A stretch of DNA of 64,000 nt from a virus, in the IMG/VR virus record IMGVR_UViG_3300036651_001908, positions 32,001 through 96,000 of that record. One strand, given 5' to 3'. The position numbers and the translations under genes are program-made. Numbering within the stretch: position 1 is the stretch's first letter; the number at the start of each line of letters is the position of its first letter. Under the pieces are notes generated by a model. That model searched no databases. It saw nothing but the letters and a program-made list of their open reading frames with translations, and had not been told where the DNA came from. This document shows positions 5,775-20,547 of this stretch, piece by piece.

Positions 5775-7646
5775 ATGAAGATGCGTGACATGGCTGAGTT
5801 CTTCTCTCAGCCAGAGCCGCCTCCCCCCACAACGGTCGAATCGATCTTCGAAGAGGAGCCCGTCTCCCTCGACGTGTTCATTCGGGACAAGAAGTACCTG
5901 GGCTCCGAGTGGAATCTCTCGCCCATCCAGGCCGAGTCCGTGCGCACGATCGAGCGGATCTACCTGCCTTCGTTGTACCCCGAGATGGCGAAAGAGTTCG
6001 GTGGCTACTGGGCCGAGCCAATGCCGATGAAGAACATCATCACCCTCCAGTGGGGCAAGGGATCCGGCAAGGACCACGTCTGCCGTATCTCGTCCCTCCG
6101 GGTGGCGTACCTGCTGCTCTGCCTGAAGAGCCCGCTTCAGTACTTCGACATGCCGGAGGACGACTCCATCCACCTGCTGAACATCGCAGCGAACTCGGCT
6201 CAGGCGAACCGGGCGTTCTTCACCCCGCTGACCAAGTCGGTGAAGCGTGGGTGGTTCGCGGACAAGGCAGACCCGAAGCGCGACTCCATCCAATATGCCA
6301 AGAACATCGAGTCCGTCTCTGGGCACTCTGATGCAGAAGGGCAGGAAGGATTGAACATTCTGCTCGGTGTCGCGGATGAGATTGATGCGTTCAAGGCCAG
6401 TGACGAGATGGTGGGCCAGGGCAAGCGAGCCCGTGAGGCATCCACCTCCGCCGAATCCATCCTGAAGATGCTGAAGGGTTCGGCCTCGACCCGATTCCCT
6501 GAGTCCTACAAGCGCGTGGCCATCTCCTACCCGCGCTACGTCGGCTCCACGATCCAGCGGCTCACTGCCGAGGCGGAGGATGACATCAAGGAGGTCGGAC
6601 CGACCTCGATCTACTTCGCGTCCGGCCCCTATGCCACGTGGGACGTGAACCCCCGCATCAAGGGCAAGGAGTCCTTCGCTTCTGACTACCGGCGCAACCC
6701 GGTGGAGGCCGCGGCCATGTACGAGTGCAAGCCGCACCTCGCGACCGACCCGTACTTCCGCAACTTCGAAATCTTCAAGCAGGCGATCGATGCTGAGGAT
6801 CAGCCGCTGCATGTGGACTACGAACTGGAGAACATCAAGTCCAAGCGCACCGGCTCAGTCCAGCAGGTGTGGACGCCGAAGTTCGACTTCGCCTCCGACT
6901 TCGTTCCCGTCCAGGGTGCGCGCTACGCCCTCCACGGCGACCTCGCCATCAAGGGCGACCGGGCCGGTATCGCCATGGCGCACGTCGAGCGCTGGGAGTA
7001 CAAGAAGGACGTTTTACAAGACGAAGAGGGCGGTGACTACGAGGTCTTCACCTATGCGCCCCACGTCAAGGTGGACTTTGTCATCTCATTCGAGGCCGAC
7101 CTGAGCATCATGCCCGCCCGGGAGATTCAGATCCGCTGGGCTCGGTCACTCGCCTACCTGCTGATCAAGCGGGGCTTCGTCATTGACCGGTTCACCTTCG
7201 ACGGCTTCCAGTCCACCGACTCCATGCAGATTCTAGAAATGCATGGCATCACGAGCGAGAAGGTCTCGGCTGACCGCACGGACGATGTCTGGATGACGCT
7301 GCGGGATGTGGCCAGCGATGGCCGTCTGAAGATGCCGTACGACCCGCTGCTGCTCACCGAACTCGGTGCTCTGTCCCGCATCGGGGGCAAGGTGGACCAC
7401 CCTCCGCACGGCTCGAAGGATCTTGCGGACGCGCTCGCCTGTGCCGTGACTGGGGCCATCAATGCGGGCGGTGAAGAAGATGTCGATGGTACCGAGGTAG
7501 AAGTCGGTGCCACCTATTTCGATCTAGGTGAGGCTCTGACCCCTCTAGAGGGGTTGGAGGACATGGACGTGTTCCAGCCGGATGGGGCTTTCGCGCCACT
7601 TCTTGGGATGAAGGAGGTGCAGCACGATGAGTTCTTCGGTTGGTGA
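5775..7646 (+). CDS. terL: terminase large subunit
   Basis: Walker A WGKGSGKD, Walker B VADEID, nuclease motifs HGDLA, TFDGFQS and HGSKDLADA. Confidence 0.92.
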   Translation: MKMRDMAEFFSQPEPPPPTTVESIFEEEPVSLDVFIRDKKYLGSEWNLSPIQAESVRTIERIYLPSLYPEMAKEFGGYWAEPMPMKNIITLQWGKGSGKDHVCRISSLRVAYLLLCLKSPLQYFDMPEDDSIHLLNIAANSAQANRAFFTPLTKSVKRGWFADKADPKRDSIQYAKNIESVSGHSDAEGQEGLNILLGVADEIDAFKASDEMVGQGKRAREASTSAESILKMLKGSASTRFPESYKRVAISYPRYVGSTIQRLTAEAEDDIKEVGPTSIYFASGPYATWDVNPRIKGKESFASDYRRNPVEAAAMYECKPHLATDPYFRNFEIFKQAIDAEDQPLHVDYELENIKSKRTGSVQQVWTPKFDFASDFVPVQGARYALHGDLAIKGDRAGIAMAHVERWEYKKDVLQDEEGGDYEVFTYAPHVKVDFVISFEADLSIMPAREIQIRWARSLAYLLIKRGFVIDRFTFDGFQSTDSMQILEMHGITSEKVSADRTDDVWMTLRDVASDGRLKMPYDPLLLTELGALSRIGGKVDHPPHGSKDLADALACAVTGAINAGGEEDVDGTEVEVGATYFDLGEALTPLEGLEDMDVFQPDGAFAPLLGMKEVQHDEFFGW

Positions 7647-9369
7647 CAACTCTGATCAGACCGAGCAGAGAAGCCTCAAGGGCATCGATGAGCATCAGGA
7701 CAAGAAGCCTGATCCCAAGTCGTATGAAATCGAAATCGGCACTGACCTCAACATGCCGTTCAGCACGCCGTTCAACGGCACTGCTCTCGGCGTGCAGAAG
7801 ACTGCTGACGAAGAACTCCAGGAGATTCGGCGCAACTCCGGCTGGGAGGTGGATGAGGGGCCGACCGTTCGGCAACTGGTCACCATGCGCCGTATGGACG
7901 GCCAGGCCCGTGCGCTCTACCGCCTGCTCTCGCTGCCTGTCCGTGCCGCGCTGAAGTCCGCGACGTTCATTCCGGCCAAGGGCGGCACGGCTGAGGCCGA
8001 CTTCATCTCGAAGGTCTTCACCACGCCCCCCGAGGGCGGCGGAATGTCCGTCACCTTCCACCGGGTGATGAGCCAGATCCTCCAGGGGCTCTTCGACGGC
8101 TTCGCGCCCTTCGAGAAGATTTTCTGGGTCCCGGACTACGGTCCCCTCAAGGGCAAGATCACGCTGAAGAAGTTGGCCTACCGGCCCAGCGAGACGATCA
8201 CCTTCATCACCGACCGGCAGGGCCACTTCCGAGGCTTCCGCCAGCGCGCCGTGATCATGGGCAAGGCCCTCGACGCATACATCCCCGCCTCCAACGCGTT
8301 CTACTACGCGGCCCAGGAGGAGGAGCGGAAGTTCTACGGAATCTCGTTCTTCCAGAGCGCCTTCTACCACTACGACAAGAAGGTCAAACTCTATTACATC
8401 GCCCACGTGGCGGCCCAGCGCTCCGCTGTCGGCACCCGAGCAGGCACTTACCCGCTGAACGCGAACAACGCGCAGCGCGGTGAGTTCGCCAAGTCGCTGT
8501 CGAACCTGAGCCTCGCGCAGTTCATGCTCATGCCTGAGAACTTCAAGGTGGAGATGCTGAAGGAGTCGGGCACGTTCGACTTCCTGGGCTACATCAACCA
8601 CCACAACAGCCAGATGAGCAAGAGCGTCCTCGCGGCGTTCTTCGACGCGAACACCGGTGCCGGAGCGAATGAGGGCTCCTTGGTGTCCTTCGCCGCCCCC
8701 GGCGACGACATGTTCCTGATGATGCTGCGCGCCGTGATGGACGACATCGCTACGGCGATCAACCACTACATCATCCCGCAGTTGGTGGACTTCAACTTCG
8801 AGGGCGGCAAGTACCCGGTCTTCAGTTGGGGCGAACTCACCGACGAGCAGCGTGCCGCGGTGGCGAACTCCTTCGACAAGTTGTCCATCGCTGGCCAGAC
8901 GATGAACGTCACGCCCGAGTTCATGCGTGCTCTGGAGCAGAAGCAGGCCAAGGAGATGGGCCTGGAAATCGACTACGACGCAGTCGAGAAGCGCGAGCAG
9001 GAGCAGCAGCAACAACTGGCTGGCGGCTTCCCGGGGATGCCTGGTGGGCTTCCTGGCATGGGCATGCCAGGTGCCTCCCCGATCGCAGCCGGTCCGGGCG
9101 CTCCGGGCGCTCCCGTCCAGCCCTCGATGGTCCCACCGAACCGGCTCACCCCGGGCGCTCCGGGCACCATCTCGCCGGTGCCGGGTCAGACGGGCATGCA
9201 GCAGGCCGCTGGTCGGACGACGACGCAGTTGAGTCCCGCGCAGCGCGTGGAGGCGTTCCAGTCCTCGCTGGCCAAGTTGACCGACGAGCCCGATCGGTAT
9301 GAGAACCTGTTGCGCCTCGCGTCAGAGATGCTGGACGAGACTCCGGAAGAAGATCAAGAGCCGTTCTGA
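7627..9369 (+). CDS. portal protein (DUF935/Mu gp29-like) with Pro/Gly/Gln-rich tail
   Basis: Follows terL; GFAPFEKIF, FYGISFF, INHHNSQMSKSVL, INHYIIPQLVDFNF motifs typical of this portal family. Confidence 0.88.
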   Translation: MSSSVGDNSDQTEQRSLKGIDEHQDKKPDPKSYEIEIGTDLNMPFSTPFNGTALGVQKTADEELQEIRRNSGWEVDEGPTVRQLVTMRRMDGQARALYRLLSLPVRAALKSATFIPAKGGTAEADFISKVFTTPPEGGGMSVTFHRVMSQILQGLFDGFAPFEKIFWVPDYGPLKGKITLKKLAYRPSETITFITDRQGHFRGFRQRAVIMGKALDAYIPASNAFYYAAQEEERKFYGISFFQSAFYHYDKKVKLYYIAHVAAQRSAVGTRAGTYPLNANNAQRGEFAKSLSNLSLAQFMLMPENFKVEMLKESGTFDFLGYINHHNSQMSKSVLAAFFDANTGAGANEGSLVSFAAPGDDMFLMMLRAVMDDIATAINHYIIPQLVDFNFEGGKYPVFSWGELTDEQRAAVANSFDKLSIAGQTMNVTPEFMRALEQKQAKEMGLEIDYDAVEKREQEQQQQLAGGFPGMPGGLPGMGMPGASPIAAGPGAPGAPVQPSMVPPNRLTPGAPGTISPVPGQTGMQQAAGRTTTQLSPAQRVEAFQSSLAKLTDEPDRYENLLRLASEMLDETPEEDQEPF

Positions 9370-10163
9370 TGACCTCGTACCGCGACCAGATCAGTGCCAC
9401 CGTTGGTGCTCACAGCGCGGTCAACTCGCTGGAGTCACAGGCACGTTCCCGTGTGGCAGCACTGATTCAGCAGTATGAAGCCGGACAGATCACTGGCCAG
9501 CAGATCCGCTACCGTCTAGAGAATCTGGTGCGCCAGGCGTATCGGGCGTCCGGCGAGATAGGCAGCAATCTGGTCGCTGCCCAGTCCGGACTGGAGGACT
9601 GGCAGCCGCAGGAGCGAGTCTTCTCCTCCGCGTACCTGAACGCGCTCCTCATGGATGTGCGCCGGAACCTCCAGGACTACAAGGCCTCGGAGCGGGATGC
9701 TCTAGCGCAGCGGCGACTCCAGTTGCGGATCCAGGCCTCCATCGGCGTCGGCACCCAGCGGGGCTACACCGACGCGCAACTCAAGGGCTACAAGGAACTC
9801 AAGGACTTCGGCTTCCAACTCCGCAAGGTCTGGTGGGCGAACTTCGTCAACAACACCCCCTGCCCAATGTGTGCTGCGCTGCACGGCAAGGACGTGGAAC
9901 TCGAAGAGGACTTCGGCCAGGGGCTGGGGACGAAGGTCTACCACAACCTGGAGGGGCCGCCCCGGCATCCGAACTGCCAGTGCACCCTGGTGGTGCTGAT
10001 CAGCACGCTGGAGAACGCCTACGAGGGCATGAACTTCGATGCCCCACAGAAGGTGGTCACCGACATGTCCACTGACCAGGTTCGCAAGATGCCGCTCGCG
10101 TTCTTCTTGGCCGTCGTCAAGACCCTGAAGAAGATCATCTCGAAGTTCGGACACAAGTCATGA
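9369..10163 (+). CDS. MuF/SPP1 gp7-like minor head protein
   Basis: After portal; KVW...CPMCAALHG...PPRHPNCQC motif. Confidence 0.85.
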   Translation: MTSYRDQISATVGAHSAVNSLESQARSRVAALIQQYEAGQITGQQIRYRLENLVRQAYRASGEIGSNLVAAQSGLEDWQPQERVFSSAYLNALLMDVRRNLQDYKASERDALAQRRLQLRIQASIGVGTQRGYTDAQLKGYKELKDFGFQLRKVWWANFVNNTPCPMCAALHGKDVELEEDFGQGLGTKVYHNLEGPPRHPNCQCTLVVLISTLENAYEGMNFDAPQKVVTDMSTDQVRKMPLAFFLAVVKTLKKIISKFGHKS

Positions 10164-10384
10164 TCGTCAGCACCAGTACCCGGTTCCTCTTCGACTCCTT
10201 TCCCTCCGCCGTGCTGGCGCTGCTGACCGTGCTTCAGGATGCCAGGATTACGGAGAAGGACTACACGTTCTCTGGCCTCGACCCCAAGCAGATCCGTACC
10301 AGTGGGCTCGTTCTCACAGGCGACATCACTGACATCTCCGCTGAACTGGAGAAGATCCCGGGCGCCGTCTCCTTCCCGGACTGA
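10160..10384 (+). CDS. hypothetical protein
   Basis: ATGA coupling to MuF gene. Confidence 0.7.
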   Translation: MIVSTSTRFLFDSFPSAVLALLTVLQDARITEKDYTFSGLDPKQIRTSGLVLTGDITDISAELEKIPGAVSFPD

Positions 10385-10461
10385 CTCCGAAAATCTTGTT
10401 TGGCTGCTCCGGTCGATAGTCCCTTCGTGGGCGAAATCTTGTTGGCGCCCGACGACAGGAG

Positions 10462-13400
10462 ATGGCCTTGAGCGACCTCGATCCGTACGAGGAGATTCTT
10501 CTCCTGAGTCTCGGGATGCGGCACGTCCGTACCCTTCAGGGCGCTGAGTTCTTCCATCTCCCTCTCGGTGCGTTCATTACGCCGGAGGAGATAGAGGCGG
10601 CCACGGCAGCCAACGGGGGCGATCTTGCGCAGGATGCGGCCGAGGCAGCGCAGGATGCAGCCGAGGCCCAGTCCGACGAAATTGCGGACAAGGCGGAAGC
10701 CGCGCAGGATGCGCAGGCCAAGGCAGCGAACGCTGCTTCCAAGATCGCCAAGTTCAAGTTCAAGGGCGTTCCGCCTGGCGCCCTGGGCACGAAGAGTGAG
10801 GCGGAGAAGTCCGCCGCGGCATATGCCAAGAACCCGTCAGCCACGATCTTCAAGAACCTCCCGAGCCACCACCCGTACAACCTGCCCGCAGATCACCCCC
10901 GGCACCTTGCTCCCCCCGCTTCCGAGGCGGCTGCCCTCGCGCTGGACCACCAGCATCACCTGGTCAGCGGCAACCCCGACACGCAGTTCCAGCCCCACCC
11001 GTCAACGTTGACCGGTCCGAACGAGTTCTCCGTCGGGCCGATGAAGTACAACGTCCCGGCTGGTTCCCGGATGTTCCAGCCCAAGGGCATGCCGAACGTC
11101 CGCATCCTCATCACGCCGGACGAGACCGTGCACGCCTTCACCCACGTGGGCGAAGTCGATGTCCCGATGGATCTTCAGCAGGCCTTCGCTGACGTGCTCC
11201 CCCCGGGGGCGAAGAGCAACGATCTTTACCAGACGAAGAACTTCGATGTCGCCGCTCCGGTCACCAGCGACCTGAAGGCGCACATCCAGAACACCCACGA
11301 CACCAAGGCCGCCGCGCGCTATGCCGCAGCCCTGGTGCAGAGCGACCACGCCAACACGGCGGCGGCAGCCGCATCCCCTCCTGCCAAGGGTGCTCCGCCC
11401 GTGGAGCCGCCCGCTGCCATGACCCCGGAGGAGGCGGGGCAGCACGCGTCGATCACCGGTGCGCTCATGCACGCGCACCCCGGGGCAGAACTGGTCAACG
11501 GTGATGGTGAGACCGAGTTCATCAAGCAGCCCGATGGCACGTGGAAGCACGCGCTGTTCAACGCCACGGTGGATGAGTCCGTCGTCCAGAAGTTGGTCAC
11601 CTCGGGCGAACTCCACATCAAGGGTGCTGCTCCCGGCCTGACTCATGATTTCAAGGGCATGTCCAAGGAGCAGTGGCTCGCGTTCTTGAACAAGGCTCCC
11701 GTAGGGGCCAAGTTCCAGATCGACGGCAAGGACATGGTCAAGGGGGAGGACAAGACCTGGAACGGCATTCCTGCCGAGAAGATGGGCACCCTCCGGCTCA
11801 TCGCCAACAACTATGAGGACGGCACCGGCCCGGCTATCCCGAAGAAGGAGGCACCGGCCAGCCCGTACTCCGCTCCGCAGGAGGCGTGGAAGGAGTCGCC
11901 GGTTCCCACCGGGCCGGACCAGATCACGGCCGCCCAGATTCAGGTTGGGGACAAGGTCAATGGCGACCCGGTCACGAAGACCTTCAAGACCGAGACCCCC
12001 GGTCGCGTTCGCGTTGTCACGCGGAGCGAGGCCGGAATGCTCCAGGAGCATTCCTGGCTGAAGACGACCCAAATCGGGGTGGAGCGAGCCAACCACGGTC
12101 TGTCGTTCGATGAGAAGTACCCGAACGCGAACAACGGGAAGCCCAACACCGGGAAGTCGATGAACGACTTCACCAACACTCCGGGTGGAGGCACGGCAGG
12201 TCAGGGTCTCAACACGCCTAAGAAGGCGGACGCGGGTAGTGTAGAGAAGCCCGCAGCGGCTACCCCGCCGCCCAAGAACGAGAATCTGGCTAAGCCGGAG
12301 TATCAGCCATTCGTAGCGCCGAAGGAGAGCAATGTCGGATCAGAAGCCGGAGCAGGAGCAGGTGGAAACCAACCTGCAAGCGGGAACGCTCAGCCCGCAG
12401 GATCGGGAAACGTTCCTGCACATGATGGCGGGAACGGCAACGCCAACGCCGGATCAACTGGTGGATCTTCAGAAGCAGTGGCCGGACAGCAACATCCTGA
12501 TGGCAATGGGGCTGGGCCTGGGGTAATCCCCCCCGAAATCGTCAAGGGTGAACTGCCGCATTCTCCTGCGGTCCAGGCCCTCGCCGCGAAGGGGCTTGTC
12601 ACCCCGCAGATGGTCGAACTCCACGCCGACAAGGGCGCGCAGTTCTTCCAGGACGCCATCTCCCGGCTCAAGGAGAACAACCCCTACGCTGCTGCTGTCT
12701 ACGTCCACCCGGTGGACGAGTACAAGAACATGCGGCTCTTCGTCACGCAGGACGGCACCGCTGGCTTTGCCGTCGATGGGAACAACGCCGTCTCGCTGTT
12801 CATCAGCCCGAAGTCCCCGCACAAGGGTGGCTCGGTCGCGATGCTCACGATGCAGACCGAACTCGGTGCCCGGCGTCTCGACGCCTTTGACACTGTGCTG
12901 CCCGGGATCTACGCCAAGGTCGGCTACGTGCCGTCCGCCCGCGTGAAGTGGGATGACAACTACGCCCCGGACGGCTGGGACAAGAACACCTTCAAGCCGT
13001 GGAACAACGGCGAGCCTGACGTGGTGTTCATGGTTCATGATCCTGCCCACTCGGATGGCACGTACCACCCGGGCGAGGGCAAGGTGTTCGCCTCCTACGA
13101 CCAGGCGGAGGCGTTCACCAAGAAGGCCGCGCTCAACCCGAGCCTGGTCAACCCGGCCAACACCACGCCGGGAGAGGTGCACCACCAGCCCGGTGAAGTC
13201 CTGTCCCACCAGGATCTGAAGAGCCTGCCTCCGGGGCACACGGTGGAGCACACGCCCTCCGGAGTTCAGTACACCAGCCAGGGCCAGGGCCAGTTCCTCT
13301 CACACAAGAGCAACGGCGTCGGTGATGTCGGCCTGATGAAGACGGCTGCTGACGCGGGCAAGATGGCGTACCACTCCAAGACCTCGGGCGCAGCCCCGGC

Positions 13401-16400
13401 TCCGGAGAAGGCTCCTGAGCCCCCGGCCGCCACTGAGGTTCCCAAGGCTCCCGCCGCGCCCCCGGCCGCTCCCGCTCCGGAGAAGAAGTCCGGTCCGGCG
13501 ATGAAGAAGGCCGAGCAGTTGACCAAGGGCGACAAGATCGCCACGGGCACCGTCTTCGGCGTCGATCACATCAACGCGCCCAAGGGCAAGGTCCACGTCT
13601 ACTACCACAACCACAAGGGCGTCATGCAGAAGGGGGAGTGGAACAAGTCCACTCTCATCGGTTACGAGGCCCCGAAGGCTGCCACGCCTGCTCCTGAGAA
13701 GGCTCCTGAGCCCGCAGGATCTGGTGGTGGGGCCGCGCAGCCTCCGACGCCTCCCGAGGCGCCTGCCGCGCCCAGCGGGGGCAATGCGGAGGGGTCTGGC
13801 TCGTCCGACTCCAAGCAACTGTGGGAGAACGGTCCGCAGTTCAGCACGCAGGACATCCAGGCGGCGCACGATGCGCTGAAGAACGCCGGTGCGTTCCAGG
13901 TCTCCTACGGCTTCAAGAGCATCCCCAGCAACCCGCTGGCGAGCCACCAGGCCGAACTCAAGGCCGAGGCCAAGAAGCAGTTCCCGACGATGCAGCCGAA
14001 GGCCGCCGTCGTGAAGTTGCTGCACAACCAACTCTCCCCGGAGCAGAAGGCGGAGAGCAAGGCCGAAGAGGTCGCGAAGATCCACATCGGAGCCAAGGAG
14101 CCGAAGCCCACACAGCAGGGCTTCAACGGTGGTGACTACACCGCAGACGAAATCCGGCACGCCATTCAGGCGCTGGAAGCCGACAACGGCAAGTTGGTGA
14201 AGTCCATTCTCAACAAGGCGGGCAGCCCGCTTGGTGAGTTGAGCCCGATCACGTTGCCGGAGGTGGGGTTCAACAAGGACAAGACCATCACCAAGCAGAA
14301 GTTCATCGACCACCTGAAGAGCCTGCTGCCGAAGGAGACTGGCCCGAAGAAGGTCACGGTCCGTCCTGAGAAGGACATCACCACCGGCACGATCGGCACG
14401 CCGCTGGAGAAGGACGGGCGCTTCGTCGCCCCGCCCAAGGCCGCTCCGAAGAAGGTCACGGTCCGCCCCGAGAAGGACATCACTACGGGCACGGTGGGTA
14501 CTCCGCTGGAGAAGGATGGGCGCTTCAAGGCCAAGGAGAAGTTGCCCCATCAGCCGGGCGACCTCCTTACCGGTGAGCAGGTCAAGGCTCTCCCGGATGG
14601 GCACGTCATTGCGTGGCACACCCATGACGGTGCGACCCACCCCGATGTGCAGCACACCGGGATCAAGGCGGGCGACAAGGTCAACAACGACCATGGGACC
14701 CAGAACAACGTCAGCACACTTGCCATCGTGGCTAACTCGCACGATCCGAATTCTGCTTCTGTGATGAACAAGCATGGCGTTCACTACGTGGGCGGTCCCG
14801 GTGCAACGAAGTTGGATGTCTCGAAGTACAAGAACGAGTTCTCCAAGGCCGAAGAGCCGAAGTTGCCCACTGCATTGGAGAACTTCGACAAGCCTGAGGA
14901 CACCGGACACGGACTTCAGCCGGGCGACCACGTTGATCAGGCTGCCTTCGACAAGTTGGTTCCCGGTGACCAGATCAAGACCTACCCGGGGGGCACGGTT
15001 TACTACACGCTGATGCCCGGTGGTCAGTCCTTCGAGTCCAGCCTGTCCGGCAGTCTCTTCGACAAGGAGGAGATGAACCCGACGGCCTACACCGGCATGG
15101 AGTTCAAGGGGCATGATGCTTCTCATGACGCTGTAACCCCGTCGGCTACCCCTGCGGCCTCTGAGGCTGAGATGCAGACGCACGACCAGGCTGTGGCGCA
15201 GACCCAGGAGTTCACTCCAGCGACGCAGGACCAGATCAACAACGCCGGTGTGGGCTCGCAGATGATCCTTCACTCAGTGAATGGGACTGAGTATCCCTTC
15301 ACCATGGGTACTAACGGTCAGTGGCACAACCCTCAGATGGGTGAGTTCAGCCCCGACCAGATCGATGCCAGCAAGGGTCATTTCGAGATGACCAAGGAAC
15401 TCAAGAAGTTGCCGACCGGCGACCCGAAGACCGTCGAGGAGATGCACGCCTTCCCGGAGAAGACGCAGTTCACCTACCACGCTGCATCCGGGACGATCTA
15501 TGACGCGGCTAAGTCCACCTCGGGGACCGTGCAGATTGCAGGCCTGGGCAACTACACGCCCGAGGGTGTGAAGGACCAGATCACAGCCGGGAAGTTCCAT
15601 GTGGAGCACATCCCCACTCCCGACGCTCATCCGCTCTCCCCTGCGGAGGTCGCTGCTCTCGGTGTGGGTTCCCGTGTCTTCTACTCGGGCGGCTTCGGTC
15701 GCGTCCTGGAGCGCAAGCCCGACGGCATGTGGCAGAGCCCCGGTGGGCAGGATGTGGGAGACGTTACCGGCATCGGTACGGCGCCCATCTACCTGGTCTC
15801 CGAGGCCGACAAGGGCGACCCGGCGAACATCGGCTACAGCCCTGAGATTCTGGATGCCAAGCCGAACAGCGTCGTGACCTACGCCGACGGTGCCGTGGCC
15901 AAGAAGATGGCCTACGCCTGGAACCTGTACAACTCGGATGGCGAGAGTGGAGGCACGCTCAACCCGGCCGTCGTCGCGCAGGACGTAGCCGATGGGCACG
16001 CGACACTGACCCACACCCCCACCGAGGCACAGCCCTTCGCACCCGGGAAGTACATCTCCAACGGCAAGGCCGCCATGCACGTCCTCCCGGACGGCACCGG
16101 TGTCTACGTCGCGAGCACGGGCACGACTTCCAAGTTGTCCAAGGCGAACGTGCTGAAGAACCACGACGCCGGGATGAGCAACTACCTGGGTGCCAACCAC
16201 CCGGTGCCCGAGATTGCGCCCAAGGAGTCGAAGGCTCCTGGTGCGGTCACCAAGGCTGCCGTTGCCGTTCCGACGAGCAAGGACATCCCGGATGGCAACT
16301 ACTACCTGAAGTCCAAGGCCGGTGACAGCATTCTCGTTACTGCCAATGGTCAGCAGGTGGCGAAGAACGGCGAGAACATCGGTGACCTGAAGAAGTTGAA

Positions 16401-19400
16401 GTTGGCCTTCAACAAGGGCCAGATCCTCGACCTCAACGGCACCTCGATTACACCGGTTGGCTACTCCGGTGGTGTCTCCCTGCTCGATACTCCGACGACC
16501 ATTCCGGCTTTGCTCGACCTCCAGAAGTACCTGGATCAGCATCCGGACCTGTTCAAGACGCCCTACTGGTATGGCGTCACGGACAACTTGTCCGCTGCGG
16601 GTTTCCCTCTGTCGTTGAGCGCATTCGTCAAGGCGTACAACGAAACGGCCGGTCCGGGGATGGCAGCCACCACCGGGCACTACTTCATGCAGGACGCACC
16701 CGCGGATGTGAAGGAGGCGATGGCCAACTTCTTCTCGCAGTCGGTCGCAAATCTTCTTGCGAAGGTGGACACGGCGATCCCCGACGCCAACACGTCGGCC
16801 CTGTTCGACTGGACGACGAACGGCCAGGCGAAGCCCCCGCTCCAGTTGGTCTCGATCCCGAAGATCAGCAGCAGCACCGACCCGGCCACGCTCAACGCGT
16901 ATGTGAAGCAGATCACTGAAGCACTCGGCGCGCAGAAGATTTTCAACCTGACCGGCATGACCAAGTACGCCAAGATGGATTGGATCAACGCGGTCAAGAA
17001 GGGCAACTTCGCCCACGCCTACGATTTGGAGGTCGCGTCACACTCGAACAAGGGGAAGGTGCACCCGTCGGGGTACCTGCACCCGGGCTACGAGGGCAAT
17101 GCGGCGACGAACAAGATCCAGTGGGGTCCCGCAGTCGAGGGCGAGGTCCCGGCTGGTGTTCCGGTCGAGGGTAACTGGACCTCCATCGGTGTGGCTGCTT
17201 CCACCGAGGAGTTGCAGAACTACCTCATCGCAGCGCACATGCAGCACCCGGAGCACCTGACCCTCGCGCAGCAGCGTTCCTGGGTCACGTACCACCGCAC
17301 CGGAGACAAGCAGGCCACGGATCAGTTGTCCGCCATGGCGGCTGTGAAGGCGCAGAACGGCGACCCTCAGATCAGTCCGACTCCGGTGTGGACGGACAAC
17401 GTCCAGCCTGCGAAGTCGTACGCCGTGTGGTTCGACAAGGGTCCGTTCCCCACCGAGAACGACATCTACAACGGGCTCACCGACGCCCCGGCCGAGTACC
17501 TGAAGGACAACGCCGGGAACGCCGAACTCCAGAAGTCGTGGGACGCCTGGTCCTCGCCGTACAAGAACAACTACACCAGCCTTCAGGATATGGCACACGG
17601 CGGCTCCTGGGGCACGCAGAAGAAGTTCCTGACGGATCACTTCACCCGGCTCCGGGAGGAGGCTGCGGCGGAGGAAGCCAAGCCGAAGTTCTCGTTGGTG
17701 AAGGAGATTGCCCAGGGCCAGCATCCCGCCTACCTGGTGGAAGACCACGGCAATCAGTACATCTTCAAGCCGGTGGATCCGGGCAAGGACTACCGTGCAG
17801 AAATCGAGGCGGCTGCCCTGCAACTGGGCGCGCTCTGGGGCTTCACGGAGCCGACGGCATCCGTCCAGTCTCTACCGACTGCCTCCGGCGAGCCCATGTT
17901 CGGTGGCCAGGTTGGCCTCCTCCAGTCCCTGATCCCGAACGTCGGGAACATGAACTTCGCTGACGGCCCGGTGGACATCGCGAGCCTGCACCCGAAGCAG
18001 TTGGGCCAGATCGCTGCCGAGCACGTCCTGGACTGGGCGATCGACAACAACGACGGCCACGGCGACAACCTCCTGATGACCCCGGACGGCAACATCGTCG
18101 GCATTGACAAGGGTCGTGCCTTCGCTGCCTTCGGCACCTGGGACGGGCTGAACGGCCCCGGCATGAACTACCAGGCCGAGACCATCGCTTCCAAACTGTT
18201 CATGCTGGCCAAGGCCGGTGTGCTCACCCAGGAGCAGATGGATGGCGCGTACAAGGCGGCGCTGAAGGCTGCGAACAAGATTTTCAAGTCGCCGGATGCA
18301 TCGGCTGTCTCGATCATCGCGAAGGGCCTGGCGAACCGGCCGCACTACCAGCAGGGTCCCGGCTCGAAGGAAGCCGTCATCCAGGCCTTCCTCGATCGCA
18401 AGCACGGGATCGTGGATGACATCAACAAGTTGTGGACGGGGATCTACGCCAAGTCCGGACTGACCAAGCCGGAGCCTCCCGTCAAGGCCTTGAACGAGGA
18501 CTTGCAGTCTGGCTTCCATGAGCCCGACCTCAGCGCGGCCATTCAGGACAAGGCGGTGTGGGGCGTGACCACGTTCCACGCTTCTCCGGACATCAAGAAG
18601 GGTTCCGTCCTGATTTGGCAGGAGAAGAACTCCAACGGCGATCCGGTCGCCAAGGGGCTGTTCGCCGTCAACAAGTACGCCGAGGGCAAGTTGCTGTCCT
18701 GGCTTGATGGCCATCTCAGCACTGATACCAGTGGCTCGTACGCGAGTGCGCAGTCGCTGGCCAACTTCCCGAACATGGAGCCCTTCCGCAAGGCCCTCTC
18801 CACCGCGGGTCGCGAGGTCAGTGATCACCTGGAGTCCGGGAACCCCAGCCCGGAGGTCATGCAGAAGTTCCAGGAGACCAAGGATCAACTTCTTGCGGAT
18901 GCCCAGTTCGGAGACACCCTTCCCGTCACTGCTGGGCAGGGCACCGATCCGATCAAGTTCCCCTCGGGCAATGCAGTGGATCCGGGCGCGCTGGGTCAGT
19001 ACCGTGCTGCGCTCACCCACTACCTGGACGCCGCTTACGAGGTGGAGCAGGCGCAGAAGGAGCAGCGTAAGACCGAGAAGTCACTGTTCGGGATCTACCA
19101 CCCGATCGCGGCGAAGACCACTCCGGCCACCTACCTGAACCCGGAGAAGGGTCTGGCCTACACCGAACTGACTACCGGAGACTTCATCACGAACATGGGG
19201 GTTGTGGTTCCGGCATCGCAGTTGCCTGACGGGGCGAAGGAGGGCTTGAACGGCTGGACTGCCATCAATGGGGCTCAGCAGTCCAGCGGGCTCACGGTGG
19301 TGAAGGAGCACGCGGGCGACCTGGCCGGGGCACTGAAGGAGGGCGGGCTCAAGGAGCAGTCCGACACCTTCAGCACCGCGGGCCACAATGGTTCGGAGTA

Positions 19401-20547
19401 CGTCGTTCATCTGACTACCGGTGAGTACATCCGGTTCCGTAACAGCGATCACACCAGCACCGATCAGTCGCAGTGGGACCAGATCCGCTTCCGGCTCTCC
19501 GGTTCCGATCACGAGGCCAGCCTGTCTCGGGTGGAGGCCGTGCTCAATCAGATGGGCCTGGACATGTCCGGGGCCGAGCCTGAGCACACGGAGGACATCT
19601 ACTGGAAGGAGATGTTCAATGCTCTGATCGGCAGCAGTCAGCAGATTCCGGCTGCTCAGAAGCAGGTTCTCGAAGACATGGCGCAACTCCGGAATGACCT
19701 CATGACGGAGCATGGTGTCTCGTACGACGGGATTGCGGACAAGCACCTGATCGAAGCCATTGCGGCGTCGAAGACGGTTGTTCCGGATCAGCATCAGTTC
19801 TGGCACGACAAGGCGGTGCAGGCATTCGGCCAGAAGAAGGTCGATGAGTGGCTGGCTGCGGAGAAGCACCTGCCGCAGTTCCAGCACTTTGATCTGGCCA
19901 ACCCGGAGAAGACGACCGGTCACGCTTTCTGGAACCGGCTCGACTTCACCCTGGAGCAGATCCTGGCGAAGCAGACGCTGCTTGGTCAGGGCACCATGGG
20001 TAAGGACAAGTCGTTGGCCAACTTCATCAAGTCCGGTAACTCGATCAGCACCGAGGAGCGCTTGCGCATGCTTGGTGTATTCGGTCACGGTATCTCGAAG
20101 GAGTCCGACCAGCCCAAGGGTGGTGCCAACTACGTCTTCGCCCGTACCGCCTATGACAAGGCGAAGTACGAAGGGGCTGCGGGCTTCGGTCCGCACGTCA
20201 TCTACTGGAACCCGGCGCTGTTCTTGCAGACCGGAACCAAGGGGTTCAACTACGACGCGTACGGCGAGCAGGACTCTCTATATAGAGCACAGGCCGACAT
20301 CCTGAAGGCACTGCGCCACGGGAACATGGACAACGAGACCGACATCCAGAACGCCATCTCCGTCTTCGACTACATGGAAATCATGATCTTCGATCTGGCA
20401 GAGAACCGCAATGCCGCGATTCAGAAGATGAAGGCGCTCGGACATGCCATACTGCGTGGTGTACCCATCGAGGAGCGGCTGATCATGCGTCAGGACGTAA
20501 ACAAGGCCATGGCGACCGTCATGGCGGCGTGGGGGAAGAACACATGA
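10462..20547 (+). CDS. giant multidomain (polyvalent-type) protein, 3361 aa: GNAT-like, repeated small domains, HipA/PI3-4 kinase-like, possible C-terminal ART-like domain
   Basis: Single 10-kb ORF with AGGAG RBS; GTAGFAV...GARRLDAFDTVLPGIYAKVGY (about 12640-13045); YIFKP...AEIEAAA...DWAIDNNDGHGDNLL...GIDKGRAF (about 17700-18125); STEER...GGANYVFAR...NE (about 20040-20340). Confidence 0.85.
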   Translation: MALSDLDPYEEILLLSLGMRHVRTLQGAEFFHLPLGAFITPEEIEAATAANGGDLAQDAAEAAQDAAEAQSDEIADKAEAAQDAQAKAANAASKIAKFKFKGVPPGALGTKSEAEKSAAAYAKNPSATIFKNLPSHHPYNLPADHPRHLAPPASEAAALALDHQHHLVSGNPDTQFQPHPSTLTGPNEFSVGPMKYNVPAGSRMFQPKGMPNVRILITPDETVHAFTHVGEVDVPMDLQQAFADVLPPGAKSNDLYQTKNFDVAAPVTSDLKAHIQNTHDTKAAARYAAALVQSDHANTAAAAASPPAKGAPPVEPPAAMTPEEAGQHASITGALMHAHPGAELVNGDGETEFIKQPDGTWKHALFNATVDESVVQKLVTSGELHIKGAAPGLTHDFKGMSKEQWLAFLNKAPVGAKFQIDGKDMVKGEDKTWNGIPAEKMGTLRLIANNYEDGTGPAIPKKEAPASPYSAPQEAWKESPVPTGPDQITAAQIQVGDKVNGDPVTKTFKTETPGRVRVVTRSEAGMLQEHSWLKTTQIGVERANHGLSFDEKYPNANNGKPNTGKSMNDFTNTPGGGTAGQGLNTPKKADAGSVEKPAAATPPPKNENLAKPEYQPFVAPKESNVGSEAGAGAGGNQPASGNAQPAGSGNVPAHDGGNGNANAGSTGGSSEAVAGQQHPDGNGAGPGVIPPEIVKGELPHSPAVQALAAKGLVTPQMVELHADKGAQFFQDAISRLKENNPYAAAVYVHPVDEYKNMRLFVTQDGTAGFAVDGNNAVSLFISPKSPHKGGSVAMLTMQTELGARRLDAFDTVLPGIYAKVGYVPSARVKWDDNYAPDGWDKNTFKPWNNGEPDVVFMVHDPAHSDGTYHPGEGKVFASYDQAEAFTKKAALNPSLVNPANTTPGEVHHQPGEVLSHQDLKSLPPGHTVEHTPSGVQYTSQGQGQFLSHKSNGVGDVGLMKTAADAGKMAYHSKTSGAAPAPEKAPEPPAATEVPKAPAAPPAAPAPEKKSGPAMKKAEQLTKGDKIATGTVFGVDHINAPKGKVHVYYHNHKGVMQKGEWNKSTLIGYEAPKAATPAPEKAPEPAGSGGGAAQPPTPPEAPAAPSGGNAEGSGSSDSKQLWENGPQFSTQDIQAAHDALKNAGAFQVSYGFKSIPSNPLASHQAELKAEAKKQFPTMQPKAAVVKLLHNQLSPEQKAESKAEEVAKIHIGAKEPKPTQQGFNGGDYTADEIRHAIQALEADNGKLVKSILNKAGSPLGELSPITLPEVGFNKDKTITKQKFIDHLKSLLPKETGPKKVTVRPEKDITTGTIGTPLEKDGRFVAPPKAAPKKVTVRPEKDITTGTVGTPLEKDGRFKAKEKLPHQPGDLLTGEQVKALPDGHVIAWHTHDGATHPDVQHTGIKAGDKVNNDHGTQNNVSTLAIVANSHDPNSASVMNKHGVHYVGGPGATKLDVSKYKNEFSKAEEPKLPTALENFDKPEDTGHGLQPGDHVDQAAFDKLVPGDQIKTYPGGTVYYTLMPGGQSFESSLSGSLFDKEEMNPTAYTGMEFKGHDASHDAVTPSATPAASEAEMQTHDQAVAQTQEFTPATQDQINNAGVGSQMILHSVNGTEYPFTMGTNGQWHNPQMGEFSPDQIDASKGHFEMTKELKKLPTGDPKTVEEMHAFPEKTQFTYHAASGTIYDAAKSTSGTVQIAGLGNYTPEGVKDQITAGKFHVEHIPTPDAHPLSPAEVAALGVGSRVFYSGGFGRVLERKPDGMWQSPGGQDVGDVTGIGTAPIYLVSEADKGDPANIGYSPEILDAKPNSVVTYADGAVAKKMAYAWNLYNSDGESGGTLNPAVVAQDVADGHATLTHTPTEAQPFAPGKYISNGKAAMHVLPDGTGVYVASTGTTSKLSKANVLKNHDAGMSNYLGANHPVPEIAPKESKAPGAVTKAAVAVPTSKDIPDGNYYLKSKAGDSILVTANGQQVAKNGENIGDLKKLKLAFNKGQILDLNGTSITPVGYSGGVSLLDTPTTIPALLDLQKYLDQHPDLFKTPYWYGVTDNLSAAGFPLSLSAFVKAYNETAGPGMAATTGHYFMQDAPADVKEAMANFFSQSVANLLAKVDTAIPDANTSALFDWTTNGQAKPPLQLVSIPKISSSTDPATLNAYVKQITEALGAQKIFNLTGMTKYAKMDWINAVKKGNFAHAYDLEVASHSNKGKVHPSGYLHPGYEGNAATNKIQWGPAVEGEVPAGVPVEGNWTSIGVAASTEELQNYLIAAHMQHPEHLTLAQQRSWVTYHRTGDKQATDQLSAMAAVKAQNGDPQISPTPVWTDNVQPAKSYAVWFDKGPFPTENDIYNGLTDAPAEYLKDNAGNAELQKSWDAWSSPYKNNYTSLQDMAHGGSWGTQKKFLTDHFTRLREEAAAEEAKPKFSLVKEIAQGQHPAYLVEDHGNQYIFKPVDPGKDYRAEIEAAALQLGALWGFTEPTASVQSLPTASGEPMFGGQVGLLQSLIPNVGNMNFADGPVDIASLHPKQLGQIAAEHVLDWAIDNNDGHGDNLLMTPDGNIVGIDKGRAFAAFGTWDGLNGPGMNYQAETIASKLFMLAKAGVLTQEQMDGAYKAALKAANKIFKSPDASAVSIIAKGLANRPHYQQGPGSKEAVIQAFLDRKHGIVDDINKLWTGIYAKSGLTKPEPPVKALNEDLQSGFHEPDLSAAIQDKAVWGVTTFHASPDIKKGSVLIWQEKNSNGDPVAKGLFAVNKYAEGKLLSWLDGHLSTDTSGSYASAQSLANFPNMEPFRKALSTAGREVSDHLESGNPSPEVMQKFQETKDQLLADAQFGDTLPVTAGQGTDPIKFPSGNAVDPGALGQYRAALTHYLDAAYEVEQAQKEQRKTEKSLFGIYHPIAAKTTPATYLNPEKGLAYTELTTGDFITNMGVVVPASQLPDGAKEGLNGWTAINGAQQSSGLTVVKEHAGDLAGALKEGGLKEQSDTFSTAGHNGSEYVVHLTTGEYIRFRNSDHTSTDQSQWDQIRFRLSGSDHEASLSRVEAVLNQMGLDMSGAEPEHTEDIYWKEMFNALIGSSQQIPAAQKQVLEDMAQLRNDLMTEHGVSYDGIADKHLIEAIAASKTVVPDQHQFWHDKAVQAFGQKKVDEWLAAEKHLPQFQHFDLANPEKTTGHAFWNRLDFTLEQILAKQTLLGQGTMGKDKSLANFIKSGNSISTEERLRMLGVFGHGISKESDQPKGGANYVFARTAYDKAKYEGAAGFGPHVIYWNPALFLQTGTKGFNYDAYGEQDSLYRAQADILKALRHGNMDNETDIQNAISVFDYMEIMIFDLAENRNAAIQKMKALGHAILRGVPIEERLIMRQDVNKAMATVMAAWGKNT
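12332..12526 (+). CDS. nested (+1 frame) 64-aa overprinted protein inside the giant gene
   Basis: AAGGAG at 12322-12327; G/C-ending codon bias moves into this frame for the length of the ORF; TAGTGT at 12237 upstream. Confidence 0.7.
   Translation: MSDQKPEQEQVETNLQAGTLSPQDRETFLHMMAGTATPTPDQLVDLQKQWPDSNILMAMGLGLG
14344..14526 (+). repeat. duplicated 27-aa unit PKKVTVRPEKDITTGT(I/V)GTPLEKDGRF
   Basis: Two near-identical copies (14344-14424, 14446-14526) within the giant protein. Confidence 0.9.

Follow-up and report, generated by a model that had tools for sequence, protein, structure and literature searches.

Can the linker of a giant virion protein also hold a second, complete gene, and what might such a gene be for? 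The question is raised by a window of 64,000 nucleotides (the whole stretch of DNA analyzed here), which corresponds to bases 32001-96000 of a 123,755-bp IMG/VR virus record (IMGVR_UViG_3300036651_001908). Within the gene of a 3361-amino acid protein of the polyvalent type, a small ORF (open reading frame) sits in the +1 frame on the same strand, immediately before a domain resembling GNAT acetyltransferases. An earlier interpretation made from the letters alone (the sequence-only reading) took this ORF for a hidden, separately expressed gene that travels with the adjacent enzymatic domain, possibly as its inhibitor or immunity factor. Judged from its sequence and its relatives, the nested ORF is very probably a real gene, and we consider it likely that it encodes a separately translated inhibitor or immunity protein that moves together with its enzyme domain. 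The features on which the argument turns are the following, with F0 denoting the frame of the giant gene.

12332-12526, plus strand: nested gene of 64 amino acids in frame +1 of the giant ORF (ATG at 12332, TAA at 12524-12526)
12322-12327, plus strand: Shine-Dalgarno-like AAGGAG, followed by AGCA and then the nested ATG (4 nt spacing)
12331-12525, plus strand: the same bases in F0, a low-complexity linker rich in Gly, Ala, Asn and Ser, the 'shadow' frame (from translation and composition)
12523-13161, plus strand: divergent GNAT-fold (acetyltransferase-like) domain of the giant protein (from AlphaFold 2, VIA-align and Foldseek)
10462-20547, plus strand: gene of the giant 3361-amino acid polyvalent-type virion protein, frame F0 (from the ORF call)

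The nested reading frame and its coding signature

The nested gene has a start and a stop of its own and forms a complete ORF within a longer one, on the same strand but in a different frame; it runs from ATG to TAA exactly as the sequence-only reading had placed it. The giant-frame linker over it counts 65 residues, including 19 G, 12 A, 8 N and 6 S, in line with the G/N/A/S linker described there. Across the whole giant gene, GC contents at codon positions 1/2/3 are 0.62/0.44/0.82. Over 12343-12537 they become 0.78/0.66/0.42 in the giant frame, hence 0.66/0.42/0.78 in the nested frame, and for the nested ORF itself (12332-12526) the own-frame values are 0.67/0.39/0.78, with an F0 third-position GC content (GC3) of 0.38-0.42. 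The switch of codon bias that had been claimed for this segment is therefore present, and it is unique: among the alternative-frame ORFs of at least 50 codons within the giant gene (n = 21), the nested ORF alone has its highest GC content at its own third position. Likewise, the lowest difference between GC3 and first-position GC (GC1) among all 180-nt windows of the giant gene is found at 12334-12513 (-0.38, compared to a mean of +0.21 with a standard deviation of 0.13). The second-lowest stretch, at 10534-10713 near the 5' end of the giant gene (GC 0.82/0.47/0.70), displays no +1-frame signature.

The AAGGAG reported 4 nt upstream of the nested ATG is there as well. This motif occurs 19 times in the giant gene, in four cases with an ATG or GTG 3-9 nt downstream, and by itself it is weak evidence for a start. 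Among relatives, 39% of the candidate nested ATGs (n = 87) have a Shine-Dalgarno-like motif of 4 nt or more in front of them, compared to 9% of the remaining +1-frame ATGs of these genes (n = 1205), an about four-fold enrichment. Contigs from four soil-metagenome runs, one of which may be the source of the record, span the nested ORF without a single difference, making an assembly error or frameshift unlikely. More broadly, contigs of six soil-metagenome runs of 2020 match window positions 11500-13500 letter for letter where they cover them, with word shares of 0.81-1.00; three of these samples may be the source.

Relatives of the small protein and of the domain that follows it

Searched by phmmer against 1.84 billion representative sequences, the 64-amino acid product retrieves two 60-amino acid proteins, aligned over query residues 10-64 (E 2e-5) and 8-64 (E 2.4e-4), both of which share the C-terminal end position of the query. 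A profile search adds two further stand-alone homologues of 60-61 amino acids, one of them a hypothetical protein of Microbacterium resistens, and the alignment of these four with the window protein has 18 invariant columns. A metagenome scan yields one distant stand-alone relative (L006). Members of this uncurated family measure 41-90 amino acids. By eye, the +1 peptides have a common core of a helix like L-S-P-E-D-R-x-L-V followed by H/Y-P-x-L-T/S-x-E-x-A, and they end on G-F, G-M or G-L directly before the stop; window-type small proteins carry an additional third helix, W-P-D-x-x-I-L-x-A-M. Modeled alone by AlphaFold 2, the window protein is predicted to form three helices (22-32, 40-49 and 52-61) with a predicted local distance difference test score (pLDDT) of 78.8. 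Its model finds no fold match in the PDB by Foldseek (best E 4.8), the sequence has no family in Pfam, NCBIfam or PHROG, and the ESM Atlas yields nothing usable. A tblastn search of the peptide, a check put forward by the sequence-only reading, returns nothing at E <= 1 among phages and plasmids. A viral-contig scan with a three-sequence alignment gives 63 pattern matches, none of which was confirmed, and BLASTP of the peptide in the giant homologues of the window protein (P0001-P0019) finds nothing in frame better than E 0.41. Two phmmer matches (P0020 and P0021) are long repeat proteins (9 and 5 stretches) with a 'TLTPDQL'-like repeat and were discounted as low complexity, and a Cellulomonas match (L005) limited to residues 17-37 within a 267-amino acid ORF was taken as spurious. 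As to the word 'overprinted' in the sequence-only reading, the nesting holds and a de novo birth is doubtful, since stand-alone relatives exist.

The domain encoded immediately downstream has a GNAT fold according to its AlphaFold 2 model (pLDDT 94.1, predicted TM-score 0.89). All 50 matches listed by VIA-align are GNAT enzymes (Z 8.2-10.0; 61 chains at Z >= 8), the best being 2fiw (Z 10.0, root-mean-square deviation 3.4, 135 residues aligned), and RimI (5isv) reaches Z 9.4. The top Foldseek rows are likewise all GNATs, with weak scores (E >= 2.2e-3). At sequence level the domain is divergent: no acetyltransferase match emerges from the curated models of Pfam (E <= 1) or NCBIfam (E <= 0.1), and a PDB profile search retrieves 2qec alone (E 0.069).

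Homologues of the domain occur in 18 phage records, 44 plasmid records and 299 viral contigs. In the Rhodococcus (three) and Kineococcus (one) plasmids examined, a gene for 50-59 amino acids directly precedes a stand-alone domain gene of about 200 amino acids. Three of the four records annotate this small gene as a coding sequence (CDS), the remaining one carries no annotation, and the gene products align with the window small protein. Microbacterium phage UtzChips carries the small ORF within gp4, in its +1 frame and just before the domain; gp4 is annotated as 'minor capsid protein' and is a MuF-fused protein carrying the GNAT-like domain. A Microbacterium metagenome-assembled genome (MAG; L004) has it nested in a 388-amino acid ORF with the domain, and Limnohabitans phage DC33 has a more diverged version nested in a 3125-amino acid protein. 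The UtzChips and DC33 records list the long CDS only, leaving the inner gene unannotated. In every plasmid, phage and MAG case examined, the small ORF is in +1 relative to the domain frame. On a viral contig (L058), a small-protein homologue forms a separate ORF at 122-325, about 1.6 kb upstream of the domain. The prediction that the small gene moves with the adjacent enzyme domain is borne out at sequence level by this synteny in phage giant genes, a MuF-fused gene, the Microbacterium element and plasmid cassettes. The surroundings of these loci vary. The neighbors of the 388-amino acid ORF are, by eye, a ParA-like gene (7653-8903), an FHA-domain gene (8900-9595) and a DUF1524/HNH-like nuclease gene (10865-11665), which suggests a plasmid or conjugative element. 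Two Rhodococcus plasmids (L009 and L095) have a gene annotated as N-formylglutamate amidohydrolase some 350 nt upstream of the cassette, and just downstream are AbiEii/AbiGii in L009 and a ribbon-helix-helix (RHH) protein plus a 'toxin' in L095.

The small gene is also found alone, with the domain absent from the locus, in M. resistens, in a Cryobacterium MAG and on a metagenome contig, there with an integrase-like ORF at its side. In M. resistens, the GNAT-like domain has no match anywhere in the genome, and the orphan gene (L002, 9953-10159) adjoins, by eye, Rep-like and integrase-like ORFs. By analogy, these copies behave like orphan immunity genes. The window-type profile is sparsely distributed: it was found in one of 401 sampled Actinomycetes genomes, the centre genome itself. 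Conversely, none of four more distant GNAT homologues (Streptomyces phage R4 gp79, Vibrio phage VP505, a Methanobrevibacter virus and HATV-2) is accompanied by a small ORF. The region around the M. resistens gene (7600-11200) is element-like, with a GC3 below that of its flanks; also by eye, the Rep-like ORF of 335 amino acids (10166-11173) and the integrase-like ORF are on the minus strand, and a 423-amino acid ORF with a TIR-like N-terminus occupies 8465-9736.

To gauge the breadth of the arrangement, the best 80 of the 299 relatives from an IMG/VR scan with a six-sequence domain alignment were analyzed; together with the other loci they gave 83 with enough upstream sequence, which were grouped into 48 clusters at 80% domain identity. 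An open segment was counted if it had at least 45 codons and ended between -150 and +60 nt from the domain start. Such a segment is present in the +1 frame of 46 of the 48 clusters (median 100 codons) as opposed to 15 of 48 in the +2 frame (median 35.5 codons). The carriers span 41% to 70% GC, and the contrast persists in clusters below 58% GC (24/25 versus 7/25). In two loci outside the distance criterion (L062 and L073) the +1 ORF is present and runs past the domain start. In six short phage versions (L011, L013, L051, L037, L065 and L075), the only F0 starts are upstream of or inside the small ORF; nesting is therefore not peculiar to giant fusions. In four viral contigs (L027, L050, L037 and L065), the +1 segment extends to 168-262 codons at 53-62% GC, compared to the 50-90-amino acid core, and either encodes longer small proteins or is held open by something else.

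For leave-one-out tests, 43 cluster representatives were used, with loci L034, L041 and L081 left out. The +1 segment ranks first of all six-frame segments in 36 of the 43, with E < 1e-3 in 23; the window +1 peptide itself ranks first with E 2.3e-5. In L062 the profile match to another segment is the same +1 ORF, slightly beyond the distance limit. Median scores are 15.8 bits for the nested frame, 6.2 for F0 and 2.2 for +2, and the nested peptide outscores the F0 peptide in 33 of 43 cases (Wilcoxon p 2e-6). Over the last 45 nested codons, stops occur in F0 in none of the 43 representatives and in +2 in 36. The giant frame and the +1 frame are thus both kept open in diverged relatives beyond chance. 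Within clusters, variable sites per F0 codon position number 137/79/548 in the domain and 93/42/65 in the overlap, where the nested wobble position has the most and the giant wobble a secondary share. We read this as selection on both frames, probably stronger on the nested one, the site counts being no formal test. The sequence-only reading would have been refuted by the lack of a GC3 switch, by +1 stops in homologues or by a missing translation signal; the switch exists, the +1 frame is open in nearly all clusters and a Shine-Dalgarno-like signal is in place and enriched among relatives.

Predicted complex, proposed mechanism and rival explanations

What might the small protein do? The domain (39 alignment rows) and, as its partner, the small protein (36 rows) were modeled as a complex in three runs. 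An interface score (ipSAE) of 0.94 is obtained in all three, the best of three controls scoring 0.00. The runs give 85-87 contacts and a partner pLDDT of 86-87, and they agree with one another in 100% of the contacts. Of 80 solved complexes, 58 reach the mark for this score, as do 2 of 110 mismatched pairs; these counts are only a rough guide where own alignments are used. On the domain, the predicted interface comprises residues 92-97 and 101-105 (from strand 88-94 and its following loop), as well as 124-126, 129 and 132 (after strand 118-122), including the family-invariant T124 and L126 and the nearly invariant F93. On the small protein, the contacts fall on residues 24-37, on 50-54 and on all of the conserved C-terminal tail (57-64). 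The model places the small protein over the beta4/beta5 cleft of the domain, which in GNAT enzymes holds acetyl-CoA and the acceptor. An occluding inhibitor appears to be the most economical reading, because the predicted contacts cover the cleft strands and the conserved C-terminal tail. The idea of an inhibitor or immunity factor, raised by the sequence-only reading, gains support from this model alone and fits the orphan genes.

Based on these observations, we propose that the 195 bases at 12332-12526 code twice, as a disordered Gly/Ala/Asn/Ser linker in F0 and as a complete small gene in +1. The giant polyvalent protein would be packaged and presumably injected. The nested gene would be translated from its own Shine-Dalgarno sequence and ATG on the same late mRNA, and its 64-amino acid three-helix product would bind the GNAT-fold domain encoded immediately downstream, with its conserved helices and C-terminal tail covering the beta4/beta5 cleft. 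In this way, it may act as an inhibitor or immunity protein that silences the acetyltransferase domain in the virion-producing cell. Lying inside the adjoining linker, the inhibitor gene would move with the domain when polyvalent genes are reshuffled. Binding and silencing of the adjacent domain is the best-supported mechanism and, in our judgment, fairly likely, because of the synteny, the distribution of orphan genes and the strongly scoring complex model.

Several observations weigh against this proposal. The TAGTGT hexamer, considered -10-like in the sequence-only reading, is indeed located at 12237-12242, but it agrees with TATAAT at three of six positions, and a sigma-70 consensus scan of 11800-12900 finds no promoter-like site; nested translation must consequently start internally on a 10-kb mRNA that is already being read in F0. 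The sequencing runs listed with the window sequence are of DNA, none being of RNA. A single-domain-protein search of viral contigs finds no close relatives of the window lineage and the contigs of the four DNA runs are identical, without variant letters in 12332-12526, which leaves no variation for gauging purifying selection on the window copy. Among the diverged relatives, four clusters have no small ORF at all (L016, L060, L069 and L080), the leave-one-out profile misses seven of 43 loci, and the overlap site counts form a mixture instead of a clean single-frame pattern. No similarity between the small protein and known antitoxins was detected, and its binding is a prediction, supported by model confidence on own alignments. 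By analogy with other GNATs, the contacted cleft is presumably the acetyl-CoA site of the domain. In these enzymes, the pyrophosphate of acetyl-CoA is bound by a motif Q/R-x-x-G-x-G/A after beta4. At the place of this motif A, the window has, by eye, H-K-G-G-S-V-A and L004 has H-R-G-S-A-Q-A, a degenerate form, so that the domain might not be an active enzyme.

Some of the same evidence would suit a small protein that is a positive partner of the domain, be it a folding or packaging chaperone, an activity or targeting subunit, or an acyltransferase substrate or scaffold. Synteny and the binding model fit any stable partner, and the C-terminus of the small proteins, strictly conserved and ending a few codons short of the domain, would together with the predicted contacts between tail and cleft suit a substrate or pseudo-substrate. 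Nonetheless, we regard a positive partner as unlikely: orphan small genes in genomes without the domain are hard to explain for a chaperone or subunit, the more distant GNAT relatives do without the small protein (0/4), and the part that the model places in the cleft is a C-terminal tail, whereas GNATs acylate amines. Still less probable is that the small gene is a relic, left behind when a cassette of small gene and GNAT gene was fused by read-through into the giant ORF, and no longer translated. The ORF is intact with ATG, Shine-Dalgarno sequence and stop, all 18 family-invariant residues are kept and the GC3 signature has not decayed. Moreover, the arrangement recurs in 46 of 48 diverged clusters, including those of low GC (24/25 versus 7/25) where a chance opening is unlikely, and the short phage versions, with their only F0 starts upstream of or inside the small ORF, make nesting the rule. 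On the side of a relic are the stand-alone plasmid cassettes, a promoter that was not found, a sequence matched in DNA runs only, and the lack of variation for measuring selection in the window lineage.

Two further explanations dispense with a separate gene at this position. Programmed ribosomal frameshifting from F0 into +1 would yield a truncated giant protein ending in the C-terminal part of the small peptide, and would account for the several relatives in which the +1 segment of 100-262 codons reaches far beyond the 50-90-amino acid core. In the window, however, the +1 segment opens just five codons before its ATG, Shine-Dalgarno-like signals are enriched before nested ATGs, and the same protein exists as a free-standing annotated gene; frameshifting is accordingly given very little weight. 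Finally, it is hardly credible that the frame is open by chance, or as a compositional artefact of a linker rich in Gly and Ala in a genome of 62% GC. Although 21 alternative-frame ORFs of at least 50 codons exist in the giant gene, and GGN and GCN codons do raise the GC content at positions 1 and 2, amino acid composition alone does not explain the F0 GC3 of 0.38. Significant full-length homologues, including annotated stand-alone genes, the leave-one-out result for the window peptide (E 2.3e-5) and the contrast between +1 and +2 (46/48 versus 15/48) argue in the same direction.

Returning to the nested inhibitor, a broader interpretation can be put forward tentatively, with the odds somewhat against it: an old and widespread dual-coding module, consisting of a linker and an out-of-frame inhibitor that plugs the active site of the following domain. 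If so, nesting would guarantee that the inhibitor is inherited with the domain during shuffling, the inhibitor would be made from the same mRNA before the enzyme domain leaves the ribosome, and packaging of the giant protein would leave it behind. In bacterial integrated elements, orphan copies would then represent host-side immunity against injected acetyltransferases, and thus a new kind of anti-phage or anti-plasmid defense. More generally, the floppy linkers of polyvalent effectors may be able to house the genes of partners that control the neighboring domain, and the small-protein family may protect cells against injected acetyltransferases. The locus offers a testable handle on how a phage tolerates making an enzyme weapon that it packages, with culturable carriers being available in Microbacterium phages UtzChips, Barnstormer and Caron and in Rhodococcus plasmids. 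To our knowledge, phages and bacteria offer few long same-strand overlapping genes for which the comparative support is solid, and such genes are discarded by annotation pipelines. The present case is unusually well supported by stand-alone homologues, dozens of diverged carriers and two open frames.

Genomic setting and comparison with known systems

Two genes of the head module lie upstream of the giant gene.

7627-9369: portal gene (PHROG match), upstream neighbor of the giant gene
9369-10163: MuF-like minor head gene (head-morphogenesis PHROG match), directly preceding the giant gene

The giant protein of the window has no Pfam match itself. Its giant homologues (P0001-P0019) measure 1869-4209 amino acids, and some of them carry the Pfam domains 'Large polyvalent protein associated domain 38' (LPD38) and 'ART-PolyVal'. 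With its position in the head module, its GNAT-fold domain and these homologues, the giant protein fits the polyvalent class. One homologue with the same GNAT-like domain (P0005) has, besides LPD38, a Zeta-toxin-like kinase Pfam match at residues 635-729. At nucleotide level, a blastn search of 11800-13200 against phages at distant settings returns only one 85-base match.

Among embedded same-strand overlapping phage genes, Rz1 inside Rz of phage lambda is one example. There too, a complete small +1-frame gene lies wholly inside a larger phage gene, with both products presumably coming from a single mRNA and working together. Differences are nevertheless evident. The outer frame in the window is the disordered linker of a 3361-amino acid multi-enzyme protein, homology between the two systems is absent, and the inner gene also occurs free-standing elsewhere. 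Furthermore, the relation proposed here is that of an enzyme and its inhibitor rather than of two subunits of one machine.

Polyvalent proteins, as far as the main text of Iyer et al. (2017, PMC5512222) describes them, include RimI-like GNAT domains, with solo versions in Actinobacteria and mycobacteriophages. The giant multidomain head-module protein of the window is alike, and its GNAT fold agrees with that description. That main text has no occurrence of 'overlapping', a single unrelated passage on a 'reading frame' and no nested partner gene. For MuF polymorphic toxins, which are head-module proteins encoded by the portal with effector domains and a small cognate protective ORF, the accessible text of Jamet et al. 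(2017, PMC5576092) describes the immunity ORF downstream. By contrast, the window has its small gene upstream of the domain, within the gene but in another frame, a layout different from the MuF/immunity arrangement. The same text contains neither 'acetyltransferase' nor 'GNAT' and uses 'overlap' once, for a clustering parameter. In this literature as covered, no gene nested ahead of the GNAT domain of a polyvalent or MuF protein was found; the supplements and FTP architecture tables of PMC5512222 may also bear on this.

A functional parallel is offered by type II toxin-antitoxin pairs of a GNAT and an RHH protein, such as KacAT, TacAT and AtaRT, as presented in the consulted portions of PMC6698736 and PMC9177977. 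The two systems differ in several respects. The small protein of the window has no PDB fold match; together with eight relatives it gives no Pfam or NCBIfam match, RHH/DUF1778 included, and its model consists of three helices without a strand. The GNAT is a domain of a virion protein instead of a free toxin, and the two genes overlap completely in different frames. What they have in common, judging from those portions of the two papers, is the order and proximity of the two genes: in those pairs, a small protein encoded directly upstream of a GNAT enzyme neutralizes it by direct contact, and in the window such a contact is predicted by the complex model.

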